Source: Oscillospiraceae bacterium
GTDB lineage: Bacteria > Bacillota > Clostridia > Oscillospirales > Ruminococcaceae
Length of the DNA: 64,000 nt
Direction: 5' to 3'
Assembly (NCBI GenBank): GCA_022791315.1
Contig: JAAVYW010000060.1
Span: 12,290 to 76,289 of the forward strand
Shown in pieces: positions 8,199 through 59,200 of the stretch. The translations under genes and the position numbers were made by a program. The notes under the pieces are model-generated. The model saw nothing but the letters and a program-made list of their open reading frames with translations. It had not been told where the DNA came from and did no database searches. Every line of letters begins with the position of its first letter. Positions within the stretch are counted from its first letter, which is position 1.

Positions 8199-8227
8199 TT
8201 GACAAAAAACGACATTTCCTGTAAAAT
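8199..8227 (+). promoter_or_regulatory. SigA-type promoter, family A copy 1 mRNA
   Basis: TTGACA-17 nt-TAAAAT. Confidence 0.6.
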
Positions 8228-8309
8228 AAAGCTGTCCCCTTTTTGGGGGACAAGGCACTGCAAAAACGGTAGGCGGTTGGTCGATAACCTCCGAAAGGAG
8301 GTGAGACTT

Positions 8310-8396
8310 ATGCGGATTACTTTCCATATTGGGCCTTTCAAGGTTACAATCACGATTAGTAAACCGGCAGACAAAAACCGCCACTCGGCCAAGTGA
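8310..8396 (+). CDS. 28-aa peptide MRITFHIGPFKVTITISKPADKNRHSAK (family A, copy 1)
   Basis: GGAGG SD 8 nt upstream, itself paired in a CCTCC-GAAA-GGAGG hairpin. The stop codon lies inside the terminator stem. The peptide is identical in copy 2 despite 2 synonymous changes. Confidence 0.45.
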   Translation: MRITFHIGPFKVTITISKPADKNRHSAK

Positions 8397-8405
8397 CGGT
8401 TTTTA
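8372..8405. terminator. Bidirectional terminator shared by the family A copy 1 RNAs
   Basis: AAAAACCGCCAC-loop-GTGACGGTTTTT, with an A-run upstream and a T-run downstream. Confidence 0.65.
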
Positions 8406-8457
8406 AGATAAATTAAAAATCCACTACCAGGCCAACCGCTTATCGCAGTGCCTTTTC
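8372..8457 (-). ncRNA. Predicted convergent small RNA of about 85 nt (family A, copy 1)
   Basis: Bounded by the minus-strand TTGACA-17-TATAAT promoter and the shared terminator. Only an 11-codon ORF without SD is present. Confidence 0.45.
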
Positions 8458-8463
8458 ATCCTT

Positions 8464-8492
8464 ATTATACCCATATTCGCTTCATATGTCAA
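8464..8492 (-). promoter_or_regulatory. SigA-type promoter for the copy 1 small RNA
   Basis: On the minus strand, a perfect TTGACA-17 nt-TATAAT. Confidence 0.65.
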
Positions 8493-8513
8493 TCCCAAAT
8501 ACTATATCGGGAA

Positions 8514-8542
8514 TTGACAAATCCTGACGAAACAGGTAAAAT
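8514..8542 (+). promoter_or_regulatory. SigA-type promoter, family A copy 2 mRNA
   Basis: TTGACA-17 nt-TAAAAT. The spacer is unrelated to copy 1. Confidence 0.6.
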
Positions 8543-8606
8543 AAAGGCAAGGCACTGCAAAAACGGTAGGCGGTTGGTCGATATCCTCCGAAAGGAGGTG
8601 AGACTT

Positions 8607-8693
8607 ATGCGGATTACTTTCCATATTGGGCCTTTCAAGGTCACAATCACGATTAGTAAACCGGCAGACAAAAACCGCCACTCGGCTAAGTGA
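8607..8693 (+). CDS. 28-aa peptide, identical to copy 1 (family A, copy 2)
   Basis: Same SD-masking hairpin and terminator-embedded stop as copy 1. The only differences are GTT/GTC and GCC/GCT, both synonymous. Confidence 0.45.
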   Translation: MRITFHIGPFKVTITISKPADKNRHSAK

Positions 8694-8703
8694 CGGTTTT
8701 TTG
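8669..8703. terminator. Bidirectional terminator, family A copy 2
   Basis: AAAAACCGCCAC-loop-GTGACGGTTTTTT. Confidence 0.65.
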
Positions 8704-8753
8704 AAATAATAAAAACGTAACTTAAGGCCAACCGCTTATCGCAGTGCCTTTTC
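8669..8753 (-). ncRNA. Predicted convergent small RNA (family A, copy 2)
   Basis: Bounded by the minus-strand promoter at 8760-8788 and the shared terminator. Confidence 0.45.
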
Positions 8754-8759
8754 ATTTTT

Positions 8760-8788
8760 ATTATACCCACACCCGCCTGGTTTGTCAA
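8760..8788 (-). promoter_or_regulatory. SigA-type promoter for the copy 2 small RNA
   Basis: On the minus strand, TTGACA-17 nt-TATAAT. The spacer is unrelated to copy 1. Confidence 0.65.
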
Positions 8789-8882: not shown

Positions 8883-10256
8883 TTATTTGGAAGCCTTCTT
8901 GGAAGCAACCAGACCAGCAGCAGCCAGGGACACAACAGCCATAGCTACAGCCAGAGAAATAGCATTGGAGGAACCAGTGCCGGGGTTGTCCTCAATGGGG
9001 TTACCATCTTCGTCAACCAGTTTGTCGTCGTCCTCTACGGGCTCGTCAATCAGGTCATCGTCTTCGATGGGCTCGTCGGTGTCGCCAACAGCCTCGAGGT
9101 CAAGAGCACCCTCAGTAATCAGATATCTGGTCATGGGGCCTTCGAACACTACGTCACCATAGGTGTAGTTGTCAGTGTCCTTAACTTCAACCTCTTCAAG
9201 GGTCATGTCGTCATCATGCATAAGATATACATGAAGATCATCTTTGTTCCAGTCATACTCTACAGAGAAAGTACCAACAACATCCGGGCGATGAGTCACA
9301 AAGTTGAACACCTGATACTCGAAATCGACATCAGTCAGTTGATCTTCCCAGGGACCCTGGTCGCCGTTATAAGCAACATTGATGTGCTTGCCATTGTTCA
9401 GAGCAGTAAATGCTTTCTTATTCAGAGTCAGAGTAGTGTAACCATCAAAATAGGTGGAAGCATTCTCCTCATTGTAAGAAGTCATCTTGCCATTGTCCAT
9501 TACGAAGGTAGCAGTCTCAGAGTTGCCCAGGTTTCTAGCCAAGAAACGAACGATAGAAGAAGGAAGCACAGGGTTACCGCCCAAATCTACATCAAAGTTC
9601 GTCTCATCGTAATTTCTCATAGCATCGAAGTTATTCACAACCTCATCATACAGGTCATCGATGTCCTCGTTGCTATAACCAGCAGAAATGGTTCCCGAAT
9701 CTTTTACAGTTTTCCCCTTCAGGCCGCTTCTGTTGGCAACATCCTTCTTGTCAACACCGTAGTTAATTACCACACCCTTATAATCAGTGGCATCAAGGTT
9801 CGTGGCTTTCAGGGTGAATTTAACATCAAAGGACAAATAAGTTTTGCTACCCGCAGTGTACCATCTAAAGGTTTCCTTGTCGATTTCATCCTTGGTAACC
9901 TCAGCAGGACCCTTTACAGAAATCTTCGGAACAAAATTCCAGTGGTTGTAGGTGATAACATTGCCCTTTGCGTCCTTCTCATTGGCAACAGCAACTACAT
10001 GGTATCTGTAGTTCATAGATTTTCCTGCAGGAATCTCCCATTCCTGGTCGGCTCCATCCAGCTCCAGAACATCAATACCAGTCGTACCAACGGCCTTATC
10101 CAAGGTAACATAGTTATCTGCTCCGATTTTCATTGTTGACAGACTGGCATGAGTTGCATTAGTATCTTTAATCTCATCTTTCATGGCAGCGAAAGATGTC
10201 GCAGCAATGCCCATAGTCATAGCCGCAGCCAGTACTAAAGAAAGTACTTTTTTCAT
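8883..10256 (-). CDS. Secreted cell-wall-anchored surface protein (NPGTG sorting signal)
   Basis: Signal peptide MKKVLSLVLAAAMTMGIAATSFA, acidic D/E-rich stalk, then NPGTG, a hydrophobic segment and a KKASK tail. GC and codon usage are clearly lower than in the neighbours. Confidence 0.65.
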   Translation of the reverse strand: MKKVLSLVLAAAMTMGIAATSFAAMKDEIKDTNATHASLSTMKIGADNYVTLDKAVGTTGIDVLELDGADQEWEIPAGKSMNYRYHVVAVANEKDAKGNVITYNHWNFVPKISVKGPAEVTKDEIDKETFRWYTAGSKTYLSFDVKFTLKATNLDATDYKGVVINYGVDKKDVANRSGLKGKTVKDSGTISAGYSNEDIDDLYDEVVNNFDAMRNYDETNFDVDLGGNPVLPSSIVRFLARNLGNSETATFVMDNGKMTSYNEENASTYFDGYTTLTLNKKAFTALNNGKHINVAYNGDQGPWEDQLTDVDFEYQVFNFVTHRPDVVGTFSVEYDWNKDDLHVYLMHDDDMTLEEVEVKDTDNYTYGDVVFEGPMTRYLITEGALDLEAVGDTDEPIEDDDLIDEPVEDDDKLVDEDGNPIEDNPGTGSSNAISLAVAMAVVSLAAAGLVASKKASK

Positions 10257-11162: not shown

Positions 11163-12107
11163 ATGTCCTTTGACCGCATTGCCACCCTCACCCTAAACCC
11201 CGCCATTGACCTGTCCCTCCACACCGATACGCTGCGCCATGAGTCCCTGAACCGGGTCTTGTCCGAACGGGAAGAAGCTGGCGGCAAGGGCGTCAATGTC
11301 TCCCGCCTGCTCTCCCGCCTGGATGTACCCAACCACGCCGTTGCCCTTTGCGGGCTGGAAAACCTCCCTTACTATCAATCCCTGCTCCCAGACGAGGTGG
11401 ACTTCCGCCCCATCCCCTTCCCCGGCAAAATCCGGGAAAACATCACCCTCACCAGCGAGGACGGCACGCTTATCAAACTCGACCGCTCCGGCACCTTTTC
11501 CCCCGGAGACGCCCTCCCCCGGTTAGAGGCACTGCTCCTCTCCCTCTTCTCCGGCATATCCTCCGGCCTGCTTCTAGTCTGTGGCAGCCTGCCCAACGGC
11601 TTGGCTGCCCAGGAAGTCTGTGCCCTCCTCTCCCGCATCGCGTCGCTCCACCCGGTGCACCTGGGGCTCGATACCCTGGCCTTTTCCCTCCCACAGCTCC
11701 AAGAGCTCCGTCCCCTCTTCCTCAAACCCAATGAATATGAGCTTGCCAAGCTGCTGGGGATAGAAGGAGGAACCCGGGAGCTTTCTGCGCTCGCCAAGGC
11801 AGCTCGGCGCCTGCCCGCCGCATTTGTCCTGGTGAGCCTGGGAGAACGCGGCCTGCTGGGTGTAAAAGGCGAGGAGGCCTGGCTTGTCCCCGGCCTGGCT
11901 GTCCCCGTCCGCTCCACCGTCGCCGCAGGGGACTCCACTGCGGCGGGCTTCTCCCTGGCCCTGCAGCGGGATATGCCCTTCCCCCAAGCACTGCGCCTTG
12001 CCGCAGCCTGCGGCACTGCCGCTGTCACCAAGCCCGGCAGCGGCATGGGCGGGCCAGAGGAGATAAAAGAGTATTTTTCAAAGCTAACCGTAGAGGCAGT
12101 CCGATAA
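11163..12107 (+). CDS. PfkB-family 1-phosphofructokinase/hexose kinase
   Basis: N-terminal TLTLNPAIDL and GGKGVNVSR motifs. C-terminal GAGDS-like VAAGDS motif. Confidence 0.7.
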   Translation: MSFDRIATLTLNPAIDLSLHTDTLRHESLNRVLSEREEAGGKGVNVSRLLSRLDVPNHAVALCGLENLPYYQSLLPDEVDFRPIPFPGKIRENITLTSEDGTLIKLDRSGTFSPGDALPRLEALLLSLFSGISSGLLLVCGSLPNGLAAQEVCALLSRIASLHPVHLGLDTLAFSLPQLQELRPLFLKPNEYELAKLLGIEGGTRELSALAKAARRLPAAFVLVSLGERGLLGVKGEEAWLVPGLAVPVRSTVAAGDSTAAGFSLALQRDMPFPQALRLAAACGTAAVTKPGSGMGGPEEIKEYFSKLTVEAVR

Positions 12108-12111
12108 AAGC

Positions 12112-12153
12112 AAAATGAGGAGGGGAATCACCTGTTCCCTCTCCTCATTTTTT
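12112..12153 (+). terminator. Intrinsic terminator after the pfkB-family gene
   Basis: ATGAGGAGGGGAA-loop-TTCCCTCTCCTCAT followed by TTTTTT. Confidence 0.7.
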
Positions 12154-12154
12154 G

Positions 12155-12183
12155 TTGCTTTCTGCCGATTCCTATGTTATATT
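12155..12183 (+). promoter_or_regulatory. Promoter, family B copy 1 mRNA
   Basis: TTGCTT-17 nt-TATATT. Confidence 0.5.
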
Positions 12184-12291
12184 AAAAATAGGAAAGATTT
12201 TTCTTTCAGCGCTGTCCATAACGGTAGCGGTTGGCCCTCTTCTCAGGGGGCAGCTTCTGCCCCCTAATCCTCTGGAAAGGGGGGCTGCCTT

Positions 12292-12372
12292 GTGACTATC
12301 TCCGAAGTTTTACAACTTTGTCTAGTCATCATCGCCATCTGCAATTTGTTTTTGCAGAATAAGAAGAAGTAA
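12292..12372 (+). CDS. 26-aa hydrophobic Lys-tailed peptide VTISEVLQLCLVIIAICNLFLQNKKK (type I toxin-like)
   Basis: GTG start 7-8 nt after a GGGGGG SD-like run. One TM-length hydrophobic stretch plus a KKK tail. The TAA lies inside the terminator stem. It resembles the 'holin-like toxin' class of small Firmicutes peptides. Confidence 0.5.
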   Translation: MTISEVLQLCLVIIAICNLFLQNKKK

Positions 12373-12448
12373 CCGCCCCTCTCCAAAAGTGCGGTTACTT
12401 CTCTAACAAGCACTTAGGGTCAACCGTCTATCGGCAGCGCCCTTTCTA
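12358..12448 (-). ncRNA. Predicted convergent small RNA of about 90 nt (family B, copy 1)
   Basis: Bounded by the minus-strand TTGACA-17-TAAACT promoter and the shared stem-loop. Confidence 0.4.
12366..12401. terminator. Shared stem-loop at the 3' ends of the family B copy 1 RNAs
   Basis: GAAGTAACCGC-loop-GCGGTTACTTC. The U-tract is weak on the plus strand and better (TTCTTCTTATT) on the minus strand. Confidence 0.5.
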
Positions 12449-12454
12449 TTTATT

Positions 12455-12483
12455 AGTTTACCCTCTTCCCCTCAGAATGTCAA
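12455..12483 (-). promoter_or_regulatory. Promoter for the family B copy 1 small RNA
   Basis: On the minus strand, TTGACA-17 nt-TAAACT. Confidence 0.55.
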
Positions 12484-12493
12484 GCTAATTTTG

Positions 12494-12522
12494 TTGCTTT
12501 CTGTCGATTCCTATGCTATATT
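12494..12522 (+). promoter_or_regulatory. Promoter, family B copy 2 mRNA
   Basis: TTGCTT-17 nt-TATATT. Confidence 0.5.
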
Positions 12523-12630
12523 AAGAACAGGAAAGATTTTTCTTTCAGCGCTGTCCATAACGGTAGCGGTTGGCCCTCTTTTCAGGGGGCGGCTTCTGCC
12601 CCCTAATCCTCTGGAAAGGGGGGCTGCCTT

Positions 12631-12711
12631 GTGACTATCTCCGAAGTTTTACAACTTTGTCTAGTCATCATCGCCATCTGCAATTTATTTTTGCAGAGTA
12701 AAAAGAAGTAA
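12631..12711 (+). CDS. 26-aa peptide VTISEVLQLCLVIIAICNLFLQSKKK (family B, copy 2)
   Basis: Same layout as copy 1. There are 3 nucleotide differences in the ORF, 2 of them synonymous (TTG/TTA, AAG/AAA) and one N23S. Confidence 0.5.
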   Translation: MTISEVLQLCLVIIAICNLFLQSKKK

Positions 12712-12792
12712 CCGCCCCTACCCAAAAGTGCGGTTACTTCCTTAAAGTAAAAGCATCTTAAGGGCCAACCGTCTATCGGCAGCGCCCTTTCT
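12698..12792 (-). ncRNA. Predicted convergent small RNA (family B, copy 2)
   Basis: Bounded by the minus-strand TTGACA-17-TATACT promoter and the shared stem-loop. Confidence 0.4.
12704..12740. terminator. Shared stem-loop, family B copy 2
   Basis: GAAGTAACCGC-loop-GCGGTTACTTC. Confidence 0.5.
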
Positions 12793-12798
12793 ATTTTT

Positions 12799-12827
12799 AG
12801 TATACCCGTTTCCCGCTAAAATGTCAA
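12799..12827 (-). promoter_or_regulatory. Promoter for the family B copy 2 small RNA
   Basis: On the minus strand, TTGACA-17 nt-TATACT. Confidence 0.55.
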
Positions 12828-12934
12828 CCACCCAACTCAAACTCCAGAGAAGAAAGGGCATCCGGCAAAGCCGGATGCCCTTTTCCTATCATCCCCCAAA
12901 ATCAGGGAGAATCACAATCGCCTTATGGAATCTC

Positions 12935-14080
12935 TTAGTCCAGCACACCAGCCATCAGGCCCTGTACCATGGGAGCAGCAGGCTCCATCGTGGTAGTCAT
13001 ATCGACAAAGCGGTGCTCGGCAGAGGACTTGTTAAAGCTGGTGAGCACTTCGATGACATGCAGGGTCACATCGCTGCTGGCGCGGCGGGCACGGCCGGTC
13101 TCGATGGCCTTTGCCATGTCAGCCAGACCCAGGGCACGGCTGTTATCAGGATAGTCAAACAGCAGCGGGATTTCCTGGAACTTGGGAGGCTCGGGCTTAA
13201 TCAGGGCCGGGTCACCCTTCAAGGGCTTGGGACCTGCGGCGCGGTAGAGGCGCACAGGGCCGCCAAAGGTGTTGGGGTCAGGCACCGAGAGGGTTCCCTT
13301 GGAGCCATAGATTTCAATACGGGGCACCTCAGCCACATAGGCGTCAAAGGTGGTGAAGATGGTACCGATTACACCGCTTCTGAACTGCATCAGGCCGGTG
13401 ATATAGGTGGGCACATCCACATCAATGATGTCGCCGTAGTGGGGGGCGCTGGTGATGGTGCGCTGCGGGAAGGTGATTTTGGACATACCAGCCACAGACT
13501 TCACCGGGCCCAGCAGGTTAATCAGCGCAGTGATGTAATAGGGGCCCATATCCAGCATGGGGCCGCCGCCGAACTTGTAGTAGAACTCGGGGTCGGGATG
13601 CCAGGTCTCATGCCCGCGGCAGACCATGTAAGCGGAAGCGCCCACCACATCGCCGATAAAGCCGTCGTCAATGAGCTTCTTGGAAGTCTGGATACCAGCG
13701 CCCAGGAAGGTATCGGGAGCGCCACCGATGAGCAGGTTGTGCTCCTTGGCATATTTCACCAGTTCCAGGCCCTCTTCAAAAGTGGCGCCCAGGGGCTTTT
13801 CAGAGTAGACGTTTTTGCCGGCCTTCAGCGCGCCCATCGTCACATCAAAGTGCTCATAGGGGCGGGTCAGGTTCAGCACCAGGTCCACCTCGGGGTCGGC
13901 AAACAGCTCGTGCATGTCCTCATACAGCTTGGGGATATTGTATTCCTCCACTGCCTTTTCGGCACGCTCACGAATCAGGTCGCAGACGCCGATGACTTCA
14001 ATCTCCTGGAACATGTTGGTAATGTTCTTGAGATAAATGCCGCTGATAGCGCCAACGCCCACAATACCAATTCTCATCAT
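12935..14080 (-). CDS. Gfo/Idh/MocA family oxidoreductase
   Basis: N-terminal Rossmann motif MRIGIVGVGAISG, and an EKP motif (VYSEKPL). Confidence 0.8.
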   Translation of the reverse strand: MMRIGIVGVGAISGIYLKNITNMFQEIEVIGVCDLIRERAEKAVEEYNIPKLYEDMHELFADPEVDLVLNLTRPYEHFDVTMGALKAGKNVYSEKPLGATFEEGLELVKYAKEHNLLIGGAPDTFLGAGIQTSKKLIDDGFIGDVVGASAYMVCRGHETWHPDPEFYYKFGGGPMLDMGPYYITALINLLGPVKSVAGMSKITFPQRTITSAPHYGDIIDVDVPTYITGLMQFRSGVIGTIFTTFDAYVAEVPRIEIYGSKGTLSVPDPNTFGGPVRLYRAAGPKPLKGDPALIKPEPPKFQEIPLLFDYPDNSRALGLADMAKAIETGRARRASSDVTLHVIEVLTSFNKSSAEHRFVDMTTTMEPAAPMVQGLMAGVLD

Positions 14081-19016: not shown

Positions 19017-19222
19017 CTATCGCGCCGTAGGCAAAGTAAAGTTTCCGTTCACCCTTTTCAAAGGGTGGTGAAGACCAACTACGTTGGTCTGGCAAGAATC
19101 GCCTTGCGATTCTTGAAAGTCAAGCCGCAGGCTTGACTTTGTCGAGGGGCAAAGCCCCCGTCGCTCACCACAGTGAGCGAAATTCCCTTCTCCCAGGCGG
19201 CGTATTGATAACAAACCAAGGC
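19017..19222 (+). repeat. Mosaic hairpin element, copy 1 (conserved arms, 6 internal hairpins)
   Basis: The arms match 59031-59167. The core holds six abutting stem-loops with 5-11 bp stems. Confidence 0.7.
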
Positions 19223-19289
19223 TACCTCCCAGCCAACACGCCGCCTTCCACCCAGTTCCCCCTATCGCCATCACATCGCAACCTCTCGC

Positions 19290-21749: not shown

Positions 21750-22424
21750 ATGGACTTCATTACATTAGAAAAGGTGAGCAAAACCTATTACGCAGGCACC
21801 ACGCCGGTAGAGGCGCTGTCAGAGGTGAACTTCACGGTATCCCAGGGGGATTTTGTGTCCATCATCGGGCGTTCCGGGTCGGGAAAATCCACGCTGATGA
21901 ACATCATCGGCTGCCTCGACCAGCCCACTAGCGGGCGCTATTGTTTTGCCGGCGAAGATGTAACAGCGTTTTCCGACGAACGCCTTTCCCGGCTCCGGGG
22001 CCGGGAAATCGGCTTTGTCTTCCAGGGCTTCCACCTGGTTCCCACCCTCACAGCCCAGGAAAACGTAGAGCTGCCGCTGCTCTACCGGGGCGTCCGGGAA
22101 AAGCAGCGGCAGGAAATGGCAAAAAAGGCGTTGGCAAAAGTGGGGCTCTCCGGGCGGCGGGACCATCGGCCCCAGGAGCTGTCTGGCGGGCAGCAGCAGC
22201 GGGTGGCAATCGCCCGGGCCATTGCTATGGAGCCCCGCCTTCTCCTGGCTGACGAGCCCACCGGCAACCTGGATGAGCGCTCGGGCCAGGGGATTTTGCA
22301 GATTTTGCGGGAGCTGCACGACAGCGGCAAAACTATCCTGCTCATCACCCACGACAGCACCGTGGCAAAAGCTGCCGCCCGCCAAGTCCTCATCTCCGAC
22401 GGCGTGCTGACCCAGGTGGGATAA
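21750..22424 (+). CDS. ABC transporter ATP-binding protein (MacB/LolD-type), no adjacent permease
   Basis: Walker A GRSGSGKST, signature LSGGQQQR, Walker B LLLADEPT. Confidence 0.8.
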   Translation: MDFITLEKVSKTYYAGTTPVEALSEVNFTVSQGDFVSIIGRSGSGKSTLMNIIGCLDQPTSGRYCFAGEDVTAFSDERLSRLRGREIGFVFQGFHLVPTLTAQENVELPLLYRGVREKQRQEMAKKALAKVGLSGRRDHRPQELSGGQQQRVAIARAIAMEPRLLLADEPTGNLDERSGQGILQILRELHDSGKTILLITHDSTVAKAAARQVLISDGVLTQVG

Positions 22425-25027: not shown

Positions 25028-26836
25028 TCAAAGTGCCGCTTCCGCCGTGTTCTGCCGGTACCACTGCTCCTGTGTCTTGTACATCCGGGCATATTCGCCC
25101 CCCGCTGCCAGCAGCTCCTCATGGGTGCCGCTCTGGCAGATTCTCCCCTCCTTCATCACCACAATCCGGTCGGCCAGCTTGGCGGAGCCCAGCCGGTGGG
25201 TGACAATCACCGCAGTCTTCCCCTGGGCCATCTTGGCAAAGCGGTGAAACACCTTGGTCTCCTCGTCCGGGTCGATGGCCGCCGTGGGCTCATCCAGCAC
25301 AATCAGGGAATGGGGCCGCCGGAACCCCCGGGCAATGGCTACCCGCTGCCACTCCCCGCCGGATAAATCCACCCCGTCAAATTCCCGGGAGAGCATAGTG
25401 TCCATGCCCTGGGGGAAATCCCGGTCCGCCGGGTCCACATCTGCCAGGCGGCAGGCCGGGGCCAGGCTCTCGTCGTCCCGCTTCCCGCCCGGCAGGCTGA
25501 TGCCGATATTCTCCCGCAGCGTCATCTGGTACCGCTGGAATTTCTGGAACACCCCCGAAATCCGGGAAAACACCGTGCCCATGGAAAGGGTGCTCACGTC
25601 CGCCCCGCCAAAGCGCACCGTGCCCTCCTGCGGGGAATAGAGCCCGGTGAGCAGCCGCACCAGGGTGGATTTCCCCGAGCCGTTCTCCCCCACGATTGCC
25701 AGCGTCTCCCCGTCTGCGATTCTCAGGCTCACCCTGTCCACCGCCCGTTTCTCCCCGTGGGGATAGGAAAAGCTCACGTTGTCCAGCACCACGTCAAAGT
25801 GTTCCGGCACTTCCCCCTGCTGTCCGCCCCGTTCCGGCATATCCAGGAACTTCACGAAATTGTGTACCGTGCCCAGGCTCTGGGTAATCTGCCCGACGTG
25901 CCTGCACACCACTTCCCGCATGATGCCAAAGAGCATCCCAATAGAGCCAAACACTGCCGCAAAAGCCCCCACCGTAATCTCGCCCTTTAACAGCGCGTCC
26001 AGCAGCAACAGGAGGATACCTACATACCCCAGCGCCGCCAGCAGGTTCATGCCCATTTCCAGCAGCCCGGTTTTCACCTGGGCCGACCATTCCTTTTTCT
26101 GGAGCTTCGCCAGCGTATCCCGGAACAGCTTCCAGAAATGGCCGAACGCCCCCAGAAGCCTGGTTTCCTTGAAAAACTCCCGCCCCCCGATGCACAGGGC
26201 ATAGTGGTCCGTCTCCCTCCGCAGCGGCGCGGCCTCGTCCTCCACCTTGGCAAACACCTTGGTCTTCACCATCTGCGAAAGCGCCACCGGTACAAACACC
26301 AGCACAATACTCGCCGCCAGAATGGGCTTGAGGGTGAAGAGATACCACCCCATGGCAAAGAAGTACACCCCGTAAAAGCACACCGCCATAATCAGCATCC
26401 CGACGAAAAAGACAGCGTTGTCCTTCCCCTTCAGGGCCTTCTCCATGGCATCCAGCTTTTCCGTGTCCTCAAAGTCCGCCGGGGCCAGCCGGGAGGCCTT
26501 GTCATGGAATATTTTTTGCAGCTTCCCGGCCACCTTTTCAAAATACACATTCATAAGATAGTTGTCAATCCCGTTCATGGCCTCCCGCAGGATGCCCGCT
26601 GCCCCCACCAGCAGCAGCCCCCACAGCGCATAGGGCAGCCCCGCCTCCCCCTGGGCCAGCGCCGTCACCCGGTCAAAGCAAATCTGGTTCACTGGCACCG
26701 AAACCATCTGCGCCAGAGAATGGAGCCCCGCCAGCAAAATCATCCATACCGACAGCACCGGCGCTTGCCGAAATACCAAGGGTGTCAGCCGTCCCACCAT
26801 GGGCAGCATCCGGATTTGCTCTTTTTTCTCCCTCAT
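25028..26836 (-). CDS. ABC exporter, fused permease/ATPase (heterodimer partner B)
   Basis: Six-TM N-terminal half. Walker A GENGSGKST, signature LSGGEWQR. Confidence 0.85.
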   Translation of the reverse strand: MREKKEQIRMLPMVGRLTPLVFRQAPVLSVWMILLAGLHSLAQMVSVPVNQICFDRVTALAQGEAGLPYALWGLLLVGAAGILREAMNGIDNYLMNVYFEKVAGKLQKIFHDKASRLAPADFEDTEKLDAMEKALKGKDNAVFFVGMLIMAVCFYGVYFFAMGWYLFTLKPILAASIVLVFVPVALSQMVKTKVFAKVEDEAAPLRRETDHYALCIGGREFFKETRLLGAFGHFWKLFRDTLAKLQKKEWSAQVKTGLLEMGMNLLAALGYVGILLLLLDALLKGEITVGAFAAVFGSIGMLFGIMREVVCRHVGQITQSLGTVHNFVKFLDMPERGGQQGEVPEHFDVVLDNVSFSYPHGEKRAVDRVSLRIADGETLAIVGENGSGKSTLVRLLTGLYSPQEGTVRFGGADVSTLSMGTVFSRISGVFQKFQRYQMTLRENIGISLPGGKRDDESLAPACRLADVDPADRDFPQGMDTMLSREFDGVDLSGGEWQRVAIARGFRRPHSLIVLDEPTAAIDPDEETKVFHRFAKMAQGKTAVIVTHRLGSAKLADRIVVMKEGRICQSGTHEELLAAGGEYARMYKTQEQWYRQNTAEAAL

Positions 26837-28611
26837 TGATACCAGCTCCTTTGGCTCTCAAACATCCGGGCATAGATGCCCCCCAGCGCAATCAGTTCAT
26901 TATGACTCCCCAGCTCTGCCGCTCTCCCCTCATCCAGCACCACAATGGTGTCTGCCAGCCGGGCAGCCCCCAGCCGGTGGGTGATAAAAATGGTGGTGTG
27001 CCCCTTGCTCATCTCCCCAAAGGTCTCATACACCCGGCTCTCTGCCATGGGGTCCAGCGCCGCTGTGGGCTCATCCAAAATCCGCACCGGCGCGGGGCTC
27101 TGCAAAGCCCGGGCAATGGCTGCCCGCTGCCATTCCCCACCGGAGAGGTCCACGCCCCCTTCCCTGGCCTTTCCCAGGTCGGTGGCAATCCCCCTTGGCA
27201 GCGCGGCAATCCGCTCCGCCAGCCCCGCCTGCTCTGCTGCGGGCAGGGCGTCCCGGTCCATGTGGGCCGCATCCCCCAGCCGGATATTCTCCTCCAGCGA
27301 AATCTGATACCGGGCAAAGTCCTGATACACCACCGAGAACATGGCCTTGCGCTTTGGCAGCGGGATTTCCCGCAGTTCTTTCCCGTTCAGCCGGATGCTC
27401 CCCTCATAGTCAAACATCCCCGTGAGCAGCTTTGTCACCGTGGTCTTTCCCGCCCCGTTCACCCCCACAAAGGCATAGTGCAGCCCCGGCGTGACTGAGA
27501 GGCAAAAGCCCTTTAAAATATAGTGCTCGCTGCCGGGATACCGGAAAGACACATGGTCAAATTCCAGCAGACGAAGCTCCTCTCCCCCTGCCGGAAGGGC
27601 CAGCGCATCCTCCTGCCGCTCCAGCGCCAGGAATTTGTTCACATCCTTCAAAAATTCCCGCCCGTTTGCCATCTCCTTGGCGTAGTAGGCCAGCCCCCAG
27701 GAGAGCAGACTGTATAAGCTCCCCAGCGCTGTCAGCAGCCCGATAAAGGCCCCCGCCGTCATGCTTCCCCTGGCCACCGGTGCCAGCAGCAGCCCGCAGA
27801 TCAGCGTGGTAAACGCCACCGCCGCCAAAGACCCGGATTTCATCCGGATAAAGTATTTCATATCAACCTTCAGCTGGGTTTTCCGGGCCTGCTCAAATTT
27901 CTCATACCATTCCCGGTTTATTTCTCCCCCGTATCCAAAGAGGGCCCGCTCCTCCACGCTCTCCCGCCCAGAGAGTACCTTGGCCAGATAGTCGGCCCGG
28001 CGCCGGTGGCGCTCGGCCTCCACCTGTCCCTGGTAGGTGGCTTTTCCCCCCTTCAGGGCCAAAAACAGCAGCGGCACAAAGCACGCCAGCATCACCGCCC
28101 CGATCCACCAGGCCTGGGCAAAAACAATCCCCATCACCGACACAATCTGGAAGACAATGCCCGCCAGTTGTACCAGGCTGTCAAACCCAATCCGCATCCG
28201 CTCCGGCAGCTTATCCGCCGTGCGGGTGATCAGATCCCATGTATCATTGTCCTCCACGTACCAATATTTCAGTGCCGCCCGCTGTTCCAGCGCCCAGCCC
28301 CTGCAAGCCCTGTCCACCCGCAGCCGGATGCGATCCGTCAGCAGCTGCCCCAGCGTCCCCGAGAGGTTGTCATAGAGCATCAGCACCAGCAGTACCAGCA
28401 GGCTCGGTATTAACGCCTCTGCCCCCACCCGCCCCGCAAACAGGGCCAGCGCCATATCCACAAAGGCCGCCGTAGTCAAAGCCTGCACCGCCGGCAGCAC
28501 AGACGATAGGATTGTTACACCTACCTTCGCCAACACCGGCGCCGGGCAAATCCGCAATGGCCCCGAAAAATAGTCATAAAGCCTGCAATTCCGCTCTCGC
28601 ATCCCCATCAC
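26833..28611 (-). CDS. ABC exporter, fused permease/ATPase (heterodimer partner A)
   Basis: 4-nt overlap with the partner gene. Walker A GVNGAGKTT, signature LSGGEWQR. Confidence 0.85.
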   Translation of the reverse strand: MMGMRERNCRLYDYFSGPLRICPAPVLAKVGVTILSSVLPAVQALTTAAFVDMALALFAGRVGAEALIPSLLVLLVLMLYDNLSGTLGQLLTDRIRLRVDRACRGWALEQRAALKYWYVEDNDTWDLITRTADKLPERMRIGFDSLVQLAGIVFQIVSVMGIVFAQAWWIGAVMLACFVPLLFLALKGGKATYQGQVEAERHRRRADYLAKVLSGRESVEERALFGYGGEINREWYEKFEQARKTQLKVDMKYFIRMKSGSLAAVAFTTLICGLLLAPVARGSMTAGAFIGLLTALGSLYSLLSWGLAYYAKEMANGREFLKDVNKFLALERQEDALALPAGGEELRLLEFDHVSFRYPGSEHYILKGFCLSVTPGLHYAFVGVNGAGKTTVTKLLTGMFDYEGSIRLNGKELREIPLPKRKAMFSVVYQDFARYQISLEENIRLGDAAHMDRDALPAAEQAGLAERIAALPRGIATDLGKAREGGVDLSGGEWQRAAIARALQSPAPVRILDEPTAALDPMAESRVYETFGEMSKGHTTIFITHRLGAARLADTIVVLDEGRAAELGSHNELIALGGIYARMFESQRSWYQ

Positions 28612-35333: not shown

Positions 35334-36203
35334 ATGGAGCCCATCATCCACACCGAAAATTTGACCTTCTCCTACCCCGCCGAAGAGGGCAAGGAGGCCC
35401 CTCCCGTCCTGCGGGGGGTGAGCCTGGACATCCCCGCAGGCCAGTTCCTGGCTGTCCTGGGCCACAACGGCTCGGGCAAGTCCACCTTTGCCAAGCACCT
35501 CAACTCCATCCTCCTCCCCATGGGAGGCAAGGCCTATGTAGACGGCATTGACACCTGCGACGAGGAGCGGGTGTACGACATCCGCCAGCGCATTGGCATG
35601 GTATTCCAAAACCCTGACAACCAAATCGTCGCCACTGTCGTGGAGGAGGACGTGGCCTTTGGCTTAGAAAACCTAGGGCTCCCTCCGGCGGAAATCCGCC
35701 GGAGGGTCGATGAATCCCTCAAGGCCGTAGACATGTTCTCCTACCGGGAGCACGCCCCCCACCGCCTCTCCGGCGGCCAAAAGCAGCGGGTTGCCATTGC
35801 GGGCGTCATCGCCATGCGCCCCAAGGTCCTGGTGCTGGACGAGCCCACCGCCATGCTGGACCCCAGGGGCCGCAAGGAGGTGATGGCAACCCTGCAAAGC
35901 CTGAAAAAGGAGTACGGCATCACCATTGTCCTCATCACCCACTACATGGACGAGGCCGCCCAGGCCGACCGGGTAGTGGTGATGGACGACGGCCGCGTTT
36001 TGCTGGACGGCACCCCCTATGAGGTCTTCCAGCAGGTGGAAACCCTCAAATCCGTGGGCCTGGATGTCCCCCAGGCCACCGAGCTCCTCCACCTGCTGCA
36101 AAAAGGTGGCTGCCGCCTCCCCGGCCACGTGCTCCCCGGCCACGTGCTCACCGCCCAGGAGTGCGCCGATACCCTCCTGGCCTATTGGCGCTCCCTCGCC
36201 TGA
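35334..36203 (+). CDS. ecfA1: Energy-coupling factor transporter ATPase EcfA1
   Basis: Walker [10 protein letters not shown], signature LSGGQKQR. First gene of the ecfA-ecfA-ecfT order. Confidence 0.85.
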
Positions 36204-36306: not shown

Positions 36307-37185
36307 ATGATTCCATTGCCATACGCCATCGAAACAGAACATCTCACCTATATCTACGGCCAGGGCACGCCCTTTGAGCTGCACGCGGTAGAGGATGTGT
36401 CCCTGCGCATCAACGAGGGCGCCTTTGTGGGTGTCATCGGCCACACCGGCTCGGGCAAATCCACCCTCATCCAGCACTTCAACGGCCTGCTAAAGCCCAC
36501 CTCCGGCCGCATCCTCATCGGCGGCCAGGACATGTGGGCCGAGCCCAAGAAAATCCGCTCCTTCCGCTTCCAGGTGGGCCTGGTATTCCAATACCCGGAA
36601 TACCAGCTCTTTGAGGAGACCGTCTATAAGGACATGGCCTACGGCCCCAAGAACATGGGCCTCAAAGAAGAGGAGATTGACAAGCGGGTGCGCCAGGCGG
36701 CCCAGTTCGTGGGCTTAAAAGAGGAGCTGCTGCAAAAATCCCCCTTTGAGCTCTCCGGCGGCCAAAAGCGCCGGGTTGCCATTGCGGGCGTCATTGCCAT
36801 GAACCCCAAGGTCCTGGTGCTGGATGAGCCCACCGCCGGCCTGGACCCCAAGGGCCGGGACCGCATCCTAGGCCAGCTGAAGGAGTACCACCAAGAGGAG
36901 AAAAACACCATGCTCTTAGTCTCCCACAGCATGGAAGACGTGGCAAAGTACGCCGACGAGGCCCTGGTGATGAACCGCTCCCGCCTCTACTGTCACGACA
37001 CCGTGGAAAACGTCTTTGCCCGTGCCGGGGATATGGAGTCCCTAGGCCTCTCCATCCCCCAGGTGACAAAGGTGTTCTCCCTGCTAAAAGCCCAGGGGAT
37101 GCCGGTAAGCGGCAGCATCTACACCGTGGAGCAGGGGGTCAGGGAACTGGAAAGGCTCTTTGGAAAGGAGGTACACCATGCTTAA
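36307..37185 (+). CDS. ecfA2: Energy-coupling factor transporter ATPase EcfA2
   Basis: Walker A GHTGSGKST, signature LSGGQKRR. Confidence 0.85.
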   Translation: MIPLPYAIETEHLTYIYGQGTPFELHAVEDVSLRINEGAFVGVIGHTGSGKSTLIQHFNGLLKPTSGRILIGGQDMWAEPKKIRSFRFQVGLVFQYPEYQLFEETVYKDMAYGPKNMGLKEEEIDKRVRQAAQFVGLKEELLQKSPFELSGGQKRRVAIAGVIAMNPKVLVLDEPTAGLDPKGRDRILGQLKEYHQEEKNTMLLVSHSMEDVAKYADEALVMNRSRLYCHDTVENVFARAGDMESLGLSIPQVTKVFSLLKAQGMPVSGSIYTVEQGVRELERLFGKEVHHA

Positions 37186-59030: not shown

Positions 59031-59167
59031 CTATCACGCCGTAGGCAAATGAAAGTTTCCGTCCAACCTTTCCAAAGGGTGGCAGGTCCAGGACAGCGTC
59101 CTGGTCGCTCATCGCAATGAGCGAAATGCCCCTTCTCCCAGGCGGCGTATCGATACCAAACTAAGGC
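59031..59167 (+). repeat. Mosaic hairpin element, copy 2 (same arms as 19017-19222, shorter core)
   Basis: The 5' arm CTATCACGCCGTAGGCAAATGAAAGTTTCCGTCCAACCTTTCCAAAGGGTGG and the 3' arm TCGCTCATCGCAATGAGCGAAATGCCCCTTCTCCCAGGCGGCGTATCGATACCAAACTAAGGC align to copy 1. Confidence 0.7.
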
Positions 59168-59200
59168 GTGCACCCAGCCCACCGAAAGGAGCCCTCCCCC

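Follow-up and report, generated by a model that had tools for sequence, protein, structure and literature searches.

What is the tandem pair of short, peptide-encoding units at positions 12150-12827 of a 64,000-nucleotide (nt) stretch of DNA from an Oscillospiraceae bacterium (GenBank assembly GCA_022791315.1, contig JAAVYW010000060.1, positions 12,290 to 76,289 of the forward strand; the whole stretch is hereafter called the window, and coordinates count from its first nucleotide)? An earlier note on this DNA had described the pair as type I toxin-like loci, in which a hydrophobic peptide of 26 amino acids (aa) with a lysine tail is opposed by a minus-strand RNA and its Shine-Dalgarno (SD) sequence is controlled by a pairing switch. 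The comparative evidence presented here supports the core of that description (a convergent antisense RNA, a hairpin shared by both strands, and a sequestered SD), and each unit is probably a type I toxin-antitoxin-like cassette belonging to a family that is absent from Pfam, NCBIfam, PHROGs, Rfam, and the literature searched. The kind of system is known; the family is new, in its peptide as well as in its antisense RNA.

Anatomy of the two units

The units (12150-12488 and 12489-12827; period 339 bp) share 93-95% identity, and direct reading of positions 11700-13300 combined with the open reading frame (ORF) listing located every element that the earlier note had named. On the plus strand, the putative toxin promoter of copy 1 (12155-12183) places TTGCTT (12155-12160) 17 nt ahead of TATATT (12178-12183), a -10 box extended by a TG at -15/-14 (12175-12176), and transcription is predicted to start near 12190; by sequence and copy alignment, the same TTGCTT, 17-nt spacer, TATATT, and TG extension are found in copy 2 (12494-12522). 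Facing these on the minus strand, the antisense promoters combine TTGACA (12483-12478) and TAAACT (12460-12455) in copy 1 (12455-12483), and TTGACA and TATACT in copy 2 (12799-12827; 11 of 12 consensus positions), in both cases across a 17-nt spacer. Both minus-strand promoters were recovered by a consensus promoter scan (4 sites versus 1.1 expected), and the plus-strand promoter is missing from its output because the -35 box matches the consensus at only three of six positions. Predicted folds depart from those of shuffled sequences for both the mRNA-sized segment (z = -6.6) and the antisense RNA segment (z = -3.1).

Distribution in other genomes

Scanning species-representative genomes with tblastn confirmation yielded 164 loci, the best 80 of which were kept for follow-up. 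Nearly all are from Oscillospiraceae (Oscillibacter, Lawsonibacter, Flintibacter, Colidextribacter, Pseudoflavonifractor, and Intestinimonas), with several loci per genome, and the promoters, ORF, and hairpins are conserved among them. Since the cassette recurs in 164 confirmed loci of other genomes, it represents more than a chance arrangement of signals. Further tandem arrays occur at loci L004 (four copies), L014, L079, L010, and L078. A profile search of 1.8 billion cluster representatives matched 103 clusters, including divergent members such as MVTYSELFQYSLVIIGIIGLFIAANKKK; the family had no match among PLSDB plasmids, and INPHARED phages returned chance matches only (E = 7-10).

In two of the arrays (L010:2898 and L079:2857), a canonical unit stands beside one of strongly diverged sequence (VTYSDMFTYSLVIIGIIGLFIAANKKK or MTLTEVLQLLLLIVNLCGVFVQISKK), and at L010:2898 the SD and the C-rich segment that faces it have changed in concert (GGAGG with CCTCC). 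Two short-read contigs carrying the pfkB gene of the window (L081 and L082) stop ~110 nt past its stop codon, at the point where the cassette begins. The cassette is under-represented in databases partly because a multi-copy unit breaks assemblies.

Evidence for a translated peptide

From a GTG at 12292, copy 1 encodes the 26-aa peptide MTISEVLQLCLVIIAICNLFLQNKKK (12292-12372, plus strand), and copy 2, also from a GTG, encodes MTISEVLQLCLVIIAICNLFLQSKKK (12631-12711, plus strand). The two ORFs differ at three codons, of which two are synonymous, just as the earlier note had counted (TTG/TTA and AAG/AAA are synonymous; AAT/AGT changes N to S). When the peptide was searched against proteins as a concatenation of both copies, 26 called proteins were found to carry the common core SEVLQLCLVIIGIC, all of them following the pattern MSTSEVLQLCLVIIGIC(S/G/N)LF(I/L)Q..KKK.

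The nucleotide sequences speak to the coding status of the ORF directly. Among 82 distinct ORF sequences, entropy at codon positions 1, 2, and 3 is 0.47, 0.17, and 1.02, and pairwise codon differences in frame comprise 24990 synonymous and 10862 non-synonymous changes (2.3:1), versus 4136:33268 and 2621:34703 in the two other frames (about 1:8-1:13). The position of the start codon is fixed (ATG in 65, GTG in 16, TTG in 1). Conservation in homologous loci, which the earlier note had named as a test of its claim, is found in that the ORF is intact in 111 of 115 matches and biased towards synonymous change in frame. As would be expected of the toxin gene in any type I system, these codon-position data and the intactness of the ORF indicate a translated small gene under purifying selection.

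Peptides of the family are 25-29 aa long and combine a 17-residue hydrophobic core with two invariant cysteines and a lysine tail. The core spans residues 6-22 (Kyte-Doolittle hydropathy 2.35), and the net charge is +2. Residues E5, Q8, C10, C17, and Q22 are invariant in a 12-member alignment (A2) and nearly so among the 82 distinct sequences, as is G15, although both copies of the window have Ala at that position.

In public protein sets, genes of this family are nearly always present as mis-called ORFs (P0001-P0026 and P0126-P0135). Their N-terminal extensions are translations of the conserved leader (e.g., ...LPVNGGGLAPISGGNFLPPDLAKGGLL-M...), and their C-terminal extensions (KKEVTA...) are the stop-codon hairpin read out of frame; the proteins extended in this way may be frameshifted copies or the result of slips in the A-run.

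The convergent antisense RNA gene

A near-consensus promoter opposing the ORF is conserved in the family: 82 of 90 units have a perfect TTGACA together with TATAAT or TATACT, and the spacing is constant, the -35 box lying a median of 114 nt beyond the stop codon. An antisense module lies downstream of 108 of the 109 intact ORFs. The single nhmmer miss (L026) still has a TTGACA/TATAAT promoter, and no intact toxin ORF among the 109 is without one. The predicted antisense RNA, the candidate antitoxin, would extend over ~92 nt in copy 1 (12357-12448, minus strand) and, from the promoter and RNAalifold, over ~95 nt in copy 2 (12696-12792, minus strand). Its probable intrinsic terminator is the hairpin shared by both strands, GAAGTAACCGC...GCGGTTACTTC, which encloses the TAA stop codon in copy 1 (12366-12401) and recurs over the stop codon in copy 2 (12705-12740).

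Folding of 73 antisense sequences with RNAalifold (alignment A5) predicts a 5' hairpin and a terminator hairpin, followed by the near-invariant CTTCTTTTT, which is the reverse complement of the lysine codons; the U-tract of the antisense terminator is thus the complement of these codons (12357-12365 in copy 1). In this fold 97.9% of the cells pair, against 27-54% in slid-register controls, and 43 cells have changed on both sides of a pair, against 15.6 in shuffles (0 of 500 shuffles reach 43). One such pair (A5 columns 71/104; positions 12371 with 12396 in the window) is A-U in 52 sequences and G-C in 20; its variable base is the middle one of the stop codon (TAA or TGA), which covaries with its partner in the opposite arm. 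Since the lysine codons double as the U-tract and the stop codon pairs within the hairpin, the C-terminus of the peptide and the terminator are jointly constrained. Many G-U pairs occur in the antisense 5' hairpin; in a plus-strand transcript they would become A-C mismatches, and they therefore constitute a strand-specific signature of the minus transcript. Taken together, the promoter, the placement of the module, and the compensatory hairpin changes bear out the opposing minus-strand gene that the earlier note had predicted. Pairing between its putative product and the toxin mRNA, with overlap at the 3' end of the ORF, would follow from the layout.

Antisense modules with the shared hairpin, the 5' motif, and a consensus promoter were also seen where there is no intact toxin ORF (L047:2190-2303, L064:2180-2301, and L005:2780-2902), and the last of these retains only the ORF remnant LFIQAEKK.

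The leader and sequestration of the SD

The toxin promoter of homologous units follows TTGnnn-17-TAnnnT, with a TG extension in 63 of 78, and is followed by a leader of ~100 nt. From its 5' end, the leader alignment (A4) shows a hairpin of variable sequence, a motif here termed X, a hairpin formed by a G-run and a C-run, the SD, and the start codon. In copy 1, the predicted 5'-terminal hairpin is GGAAAGA-TTTT-TCTTTC (12191-12207), replaced in homologues by hairpins of other sequences at the same position. Motif X comprises the hairpin CGCTGTCC-ATAAC-GGTAGCG and a C-rich tail, GGTTGGCCCTCT, the first of two anti-SD segments (12209-12241; family form GCGCTGCC-ATAA-CGGTAGGCG with the tail GGTTRGCCCC), as read from the fold and the leader alignment. 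The next hairpin, AGGGGGCAG-CTT-CTGCCCCCT (12245-12265; family form ACAGGGGGCAGC-TTCT-TGCCCCCTGA), pairs G-run 1, an SD mimic, with the C-run, the second anti-SD. The SD GGGGGG (12279-12284) and a conserved CTGCC spacer (together 12279-12289) place the start codon 7 nt beyond the SD; across the family GAAAGGGGGGCTGCC stands directly before the start codon, and the SD plus CTGCC is nearly invariant. Copy 2 has its motif X hairpin and X-tail at 12548-12580, its G-run 1/C-run hairpin AGGGGGCGG-CTT-CTGCCCCCT at 12584-12604, and its SD GGGGGG with CTGCC at 12618-12628, all on the plus strand.

Applied to a plain MAFFT alignment of the leaders, RNAalifold found almost no structure. Column-based counting is unreliable for the leader because sub-families shift register in alignment A4, and helices were therefore searched in each sequence separately, with cognate versus non-cognate pairings as controls. 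The earlier note had proposed two alternative partners for the C-run, and both are borne out: of 80 leaders, 78 can pair the C-run with the SD over at least 6 contiguous bp, and 70 can pair it with the upstream G-run over the same minimum. The variants of these pairings include seven compensatory classes (GCCCCCT:GGGGGGC, GCCTCCT:AGGAGGC, G(C/T)CCTCC:GGAGGGC, TGCCCCCTCC:GGAGGGGGTG, TGTTCCCTCC:GGAGGGGATG, GTCCCCT:GGGGGAC, and GGCCCC:GGGGCC), and cognate pairings exceed non-cognate ones with a permutation p < 2e-4, a value inflated by relatedness among the loci. The X-tail is a further anti-SD that the earlier note had overlooked, with at least 6 bp to the SD in 69 of 81 leaders (e.g., TAGTCCCCC:GGGGGGCTG), and the CTG that follows the SD is conserved because the X-tail pairs there too.

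In the predicted ensemble of the full mRNA, the SD is 94% paired, consistent with the inert primary transcript and anti-SD-sequestered SD of type I systems in general. Modelling covered the mRNA in a short and a long form, the long form again after masking of its 3' part, and three versions truncated from the 5' end. A freed SD was found in none of them (mean unpaired probability 0.05-0.30 for the long, masked, and 5'-truncated forms). Of the SD switch suggested earlier, the lock thus stands, with its conserved anti-SD helices, and the switching does not, since every modelled form keeps the SD paired; for the same reason, the idea that fold-back of the mRNA frees the SD finds no support in the thermodynamics. 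The long-range SD lock proposed for the loop of the stop-codon hairpin is not conserved either, and pairing of the SD to the 3' region is ~0.00 in the ensemble.

The X/X' inverted repeat and the probable 3' end of the toxin mRNA

Motif X of the leader recurs within the first ~45 nt of the predicted antisense RNA (AGAAAGGGCGCUGCCGGUAGACGGUUAGCCCC), such that X and its counterpart X' form inverted repeats of 25-30 bp that flank the ORF in the DNA, a feature unnoticed in the earlier note. In copy 1, X' occupies 12417-12454; on the minus strand it corresponds, by fold and covariation, to the 5' hairpin of the antisense RNA, GGGCGCUGCCGAUAGACGGUUGACCC, and on the plus strand it is complementary to X and reads as a hairpin followed by TTTCTATTTATT, an arrangement that may be the true terminator of the toxin mRNA. 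Copy 2 has X' with its plus-strand T-tract at 12762-12798. A hidden Markov model (HMM) of the antisense 5' region also has plus-strand matches in the sense leaders (E = 7e-4 and 4e-3; in copy 2 at 12513-12577). Duplexes between X and X' average -47.5 kcal/mol for cognate pairs and -39.4 kcal/mol for non-cognate pairs, the cognate partner has a median rank of 7 of 75, and at variable columns the same base appears in both arms more often than in shuffled pairings (e.g., 0.77 versus 0.45 and 0.89 versus 0.58). These comparisons indicate that X and X' co-evolve within loci, with gene conversion between the two arms as an alternative explanation of that co-evolution.

The toxin mRNA probably ends after X', because on the plus strand a U-tract is missing after the stop-codon hairpin, whereas a T-tract follows the X' hairpin. 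The plus-strand X' hairpin averages -11 kcal/mol and is followed by 6.6 T in 10 nt (69 loci), and at 27 of 73 loci a further plus-strand terminator is predicted at most 110 nt from the antisense -35 box, compared with 7 of 70 control windows. Such an mRNA would be ~262 nt long in copy 1 and would span the whole antisense RNA, an overlap like that of TxpA/RatA or BsrG/SR4. For transcripts of this length, folding predicts X:X' pairing in 71 of 78 loci (expected base pairs: median 26).

Two further candidate contacts were set aside. There is no support for the antisense 5' domain making a specific contact in trans with the leader or ribosome-binding site (RBS): an unrestricted RNAduplex test, which allowed unrealistically long loops, gave -35.5 kcal/mol against -32.5 kcal/mol for shuffles (z = -0.8). 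The CAGCGCTG palindrome was rejected as a self-kissing site since it is not palindromic in divergent members.

Interpretation and alternative explanations

In the proposed mechanism, the weak extended -10 promoter would give rise to an mRNA with a ~100-nt leader whose SD is held paired by either upstream C-rich anti-SD (the X-tail or the C-run), and the upstream G-run, mimicking the SD, could occupy the C-run. The peptide would insert into the membrane and is presumably harmful when made in excess. The near-consensus convergent promoter would drive a ~90-nt RNA consisting of the 5' hairpin and then the terminator. Because the terminator complements the stop hairpin and the lysine codons, this RNA would match the 3' part of the toxin mRNA with perfect complementarity. 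It may act as the antitoxin by promoting decay, by imposing a stronger translational block, or both, as do RatA, SR4, and SR5 in Bacillus. Within the toxin mRNA, the 5' X would pair with the 3' X' over ~25 bp, and the antisense RNA, having the same sequence as X at its 5' end, would compete for X'. A bolder version, possible but doubtful, is a design new to Gram-positive type I systems: the mRNA would cross the antitoxin gene, end in the sequence complementary to the antitoxin 5' hairpin, and fold back through X:X' (~25 bp, as in hok and AapA), the antitoxin would compete with the leader for the 3' site, and the X-tail would thereby be freed to lock the SD, with reuse of the scaffold in a second peptide family of the window (family A, described below) making it a portable antisense control cassette.

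Several points weigh against the toxin-antitoxin interpretation. Its support comes from sequence and models, and the 3' end of the toxin mRNA, and hence the intramolecular X:X' pairing, is a prediction from the sequence. None of the modelled RNA forms frees the SD, the antisense 5' domain does not stand out from shuffles in its duplex with the leader, the cognate versus non-cognate statistics are inflated by the relatedness of the loci, and the hydrophobic core is merely 17 residues long. In addition, all curated toxin models failed to recognize the peptide. The hmmscan check suggested earlier does not place it in the Pfam holin-like toxin family Hol_Tox (PF16935; gathering threshold 23.3 bits): one window peptide scored 9.9 bits (E = 0.89) and the other gave no hit, the best of 12 family members reached E = 0.25, and the best divergent relative reached 17.1 bits (E = 0.0051). 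TxpA itself (59 aa) carries PF16935, and hhalign of alignment A2 with a TxpA alignment of three sequences only (A6) gave a probability of 11% over 15 columns (MSTSEVL versus MSTYESL). NCBIfam and PHROGs searches of the peptide family returned no match, and no match to the Fst toxin family turned up in the Pfam scans; matches to SLATT_6 and PetG were discarded as low-complexity transmembrane noise. Among RNA families, nothing in the array exceeded an Rfam threshold, with ctRNA_pT181 scoring best (31 bits versus a gathering threshold of 56, at the copy 2 antisense RNA) and SR6 scoring 18 versus 55 at an off-target position; across the whole window, Rfam identified tRNA only. The peptide sequence motif occurs in no paper of the literature searched, which likewise contains no link between type I systems and these Oscillospiraceae genera.

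The same anatomy would be expected if the peptide were a small membrane protein that is not toxic but regulatory or accessory in function, with its synthesis tuned by a cis-antisense RNA. This has a precedent in the tandem YhzE-2 genes with an antisense RNA, which are non-toxic even in the native host (PMC2887945), and the invariant Cys10, Cys17, Gln8, Gln22, and Glu5 suggest a specific interaction rather than generic membrane damage. A non-toxic role is nevertheless judged unlikely, since the layered repression (a weak promoter against a consensus antisense promoter, together with a double anti-SD), the GTG or TTG starts in 17 of the 82 distinct ORF sequences, the existence of antisense-only remnants when no intact ORF lacks an antisense promoter, and the multi-copy state with tandem arrays and prophage carriage are all typical of toxins. 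That carriage could also be taken to mean that the peptide serves a phage function in prophage lysis modules, such as holin- or antiholin-like lysis timing or superinfection exclusion. Nineteen loci lie on viral contigs (IMG/VR), and below threshold the holin-like toxin family is the one Pfam family matched repeatedly. Most of the contigs that carry the member P0004 (L083-L088) place it in a prophage-like gene string, with a 444-aa Phage_lysozyme2/CHAP endolysin two genes away. However, this prophage copy is on the strand opposite the lysis genes, with its own promoter and antisense RNA, the window array sits between sugar-metabolism genes (pfkB and GFO/IDH/MocA), most of the 164 genomic loci occur several per genome and in arrays, and no PHROG family was matched, all of which makes a phage function very unlikely. 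In one of the P0004 contigs (L086), the peptide has another context, with DUF5131 followed by an Mfd-like protein (with UvrB_inter, CarD_TRCF_RID, and DEAD domains) and then RNase E/G.

The least credible of the explanations considered is that the unit is repeated non-coding or mobile DNA (e.g., a miniature inverted-repeat transposable element, or an invertible segment bounded by X and X') in which the ORF is incidental. The co-evolving 25-30 bp inverted repeats around the ORF, the tandem and multi-copy state, and the breaking of assemblies at the unit could all be accommodated by such an element. Its probability is reduced almost to nothing by the clear protein-coding substitution pattern in an ORF that is so rarely disrupted, by conservation that ends exactly at the two -35 boxes of homologous units with no terminal repeats or target duplications outside them, by the orientation of every ORF match in the fetched loci, which is the same relative to its own promoters, and by the lack of an associated recombinase. 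With these alternatives considered, the type I toxin-antitoxin-like cassette remains the preferred reading.

A second cassette family and other features of the window

The array is flanked by a pfkB kinase gene and a GFO/IDH/MocA oxidoreductase gene, which are mutually convergent and form a sugar-metabolism neighbourhood. Directly past the array, a GC-rich hairpin read from the sequence, GGGCATCCGGC-AAA-GCCGGATGCCC followed by TTTT (12856-12884, both strands), probably stops transcription from both sides, insulating the array from the oxidoreductase gene that converges on it.

A second tandem pair, family A (8199-8788; units of ~297 bp), is built on the same scaffold as the array described above (family B, 12150-12827). 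Its units begin with a TTGACA-17-TAAAAT promoter, a motif X leader, and an SD locked in CCTCC-GAAA-GGAGG, and they end with a hairpin over the 3' end of the ORF, motif X', and a convergent TTGACA-17-TATAAT promoter. The antisense-5' HMM of family B matches family A on the antisense side (E = 3e-8 and 2.5e-6) and on the sense side (E = 2.4e-4), with X and X' reading GCACTGC in family A versus GCGCTGC in family B. The cargo is an unrelated, non-hydrophobic 28-aa peptide, MRITFHIGPFKVTITISKPADKNRHSAK (from ATG, 8311-8396 and 8609-8693; grand average of hydropathy -0.43, net charge +5), conserved in other sequences as MRITFHIGxxTVTIxI...NRHSAK. Between the two cassette arrays, a 457-aa ORF (8883-10256, minus strand) with a signal peptide, C-terminal acidic repeats, and a membrane anchor has no Pfam match. 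Other direct-repeat families of the window are found at 22179-22285, 35766-35872, and 36751-36857 (D2), at 25142-25375 with 26923-27156 (D4/D7), and at 19185-19237 with 59130-59182 (D8).

Significance

Type I systems are barely charted in Clostridia outside C. difficile, and gene callers overlook them; with the present family, more than 160 loci are added from abundant gut Oscillospiraceae and their prophages. Its clean RNA architecture, with compensatory support, offers parts that can be tested, namely the two anti-SD segments, the SD mimic, the U-tract that is the lysine tail read backwards, and the stop codon that covaries with its hairpin partner.

Comparison with known systems

Many general features of the cassette have counterparts in characterized type I systems. 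Tandem duplication is typical of type I loci (PMC2887945), antisense RNAs of Gram-positive bacteria overlap the 3' end of the mRNA (PMC8594479), and RBS sequestration and GUG start codons are known safeguards (PMC6562991). The closest likeness in overall design is to TxpA/RatA, BsrG/SR4, and BsrE/SR5 of B. subtilis, whose toxins fall in PF16935. As in the present family, these systems pair a small hydrophobic toxin that has a basic C-terminus with a convergent antitoxin RNA overlapping the 3' end of the toxin mRNA, hold the RBS in GC pairs, and are located in prophages or prophage-like regions (PMC6562991, PMC8594479). The N-terminal ends also resemble each other (MST-x-E-x-L). Homology is not significant, however, and the peptide of the window is shorter (26 aa, compared with 38 aa for BsrG) and has two invariant cysteines; the cassette further differs in its two anti-SD segments and SD mimic, the motif common to the leader and the antisense 5' end, and the frequency of tandem arrays.

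Within the Clostridia, the C. difficile CD toxins and RCd antitoxins share a hydrophobic N-terminal part and a Lys-rich C-terminus, and those modules are likewise abundant in prophages and equipped with convergent antisense RNAs (PMC6563280); Lys-rich toxins are known from C. difficile and its prophages (PMC6563280). No sequence similarity to the C. difficile toxins (30-56 aa) was detected, and the family described here is confined to Oscillospiraceae-type genomes and has an RNA scaffold of its own. The par locus of E. faecalis (Fst/RNA II) resembles the cassette in its two convergent small transcripts with one bidirectional hairpin, its repeat motif near the 5' ends of both RNAs, and an antisense RNA of ~65-90 nt (in part PMC8594479). 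The par repeats are direct, which makes the two RNAs complementary and lets them pair over the RBS, whereas those of the cassette are inverted and give both RNAs the same sequence; direct repeats of the par/Fst type were thus not found here. SprA1/SprA1as of S. aureus similarly has a 3'-overlapping antisense RNA with a conserved 5' domain outside the overlap, free to act at another site (PMC8594479), but the 5' domain of SprA1as is complementary to the toxin RBS, and the corresponding match of the cassette (AGCCCCC versus GGGGGCU) is short and non-significant in the duplex test.

The remaining parallel concerns the 5'-3' long-distance interactions of hok and AapA (PMC6733600), which reviews attribute to Gram-negative systems (PMC6562991). 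According to a 2019 review of B. subtilis, mRNA processing is the Gram-negative strategy and RBS sequestration that of B. subtilis (PMC6562991). In the Gram-negative systems hok/Sok and AapA/IsoA (Helicobacter), unlike here, the antisense RNA covers the 5' side or the ORF. Of the elements of a hok/AapA-type lock, complementarity, covariation, and a plus-strand hairpin with a T-tract after X' are observed in the cassette, and the mRNA would have to reach X', as its probable 3' end suggests. Whereas the SD of hok and AapA is sequestered directly by the 5'-3' pairing, the pairing predicted for the cassette would engage motif X and not the SD. Should the fold-back and the leader-mimicking antitoxin prove real, Gram-positive bacteria would join those that use the fold-back strategy, and the cassette would be a compact, modular RNA device for controlling the expression of small peptides.

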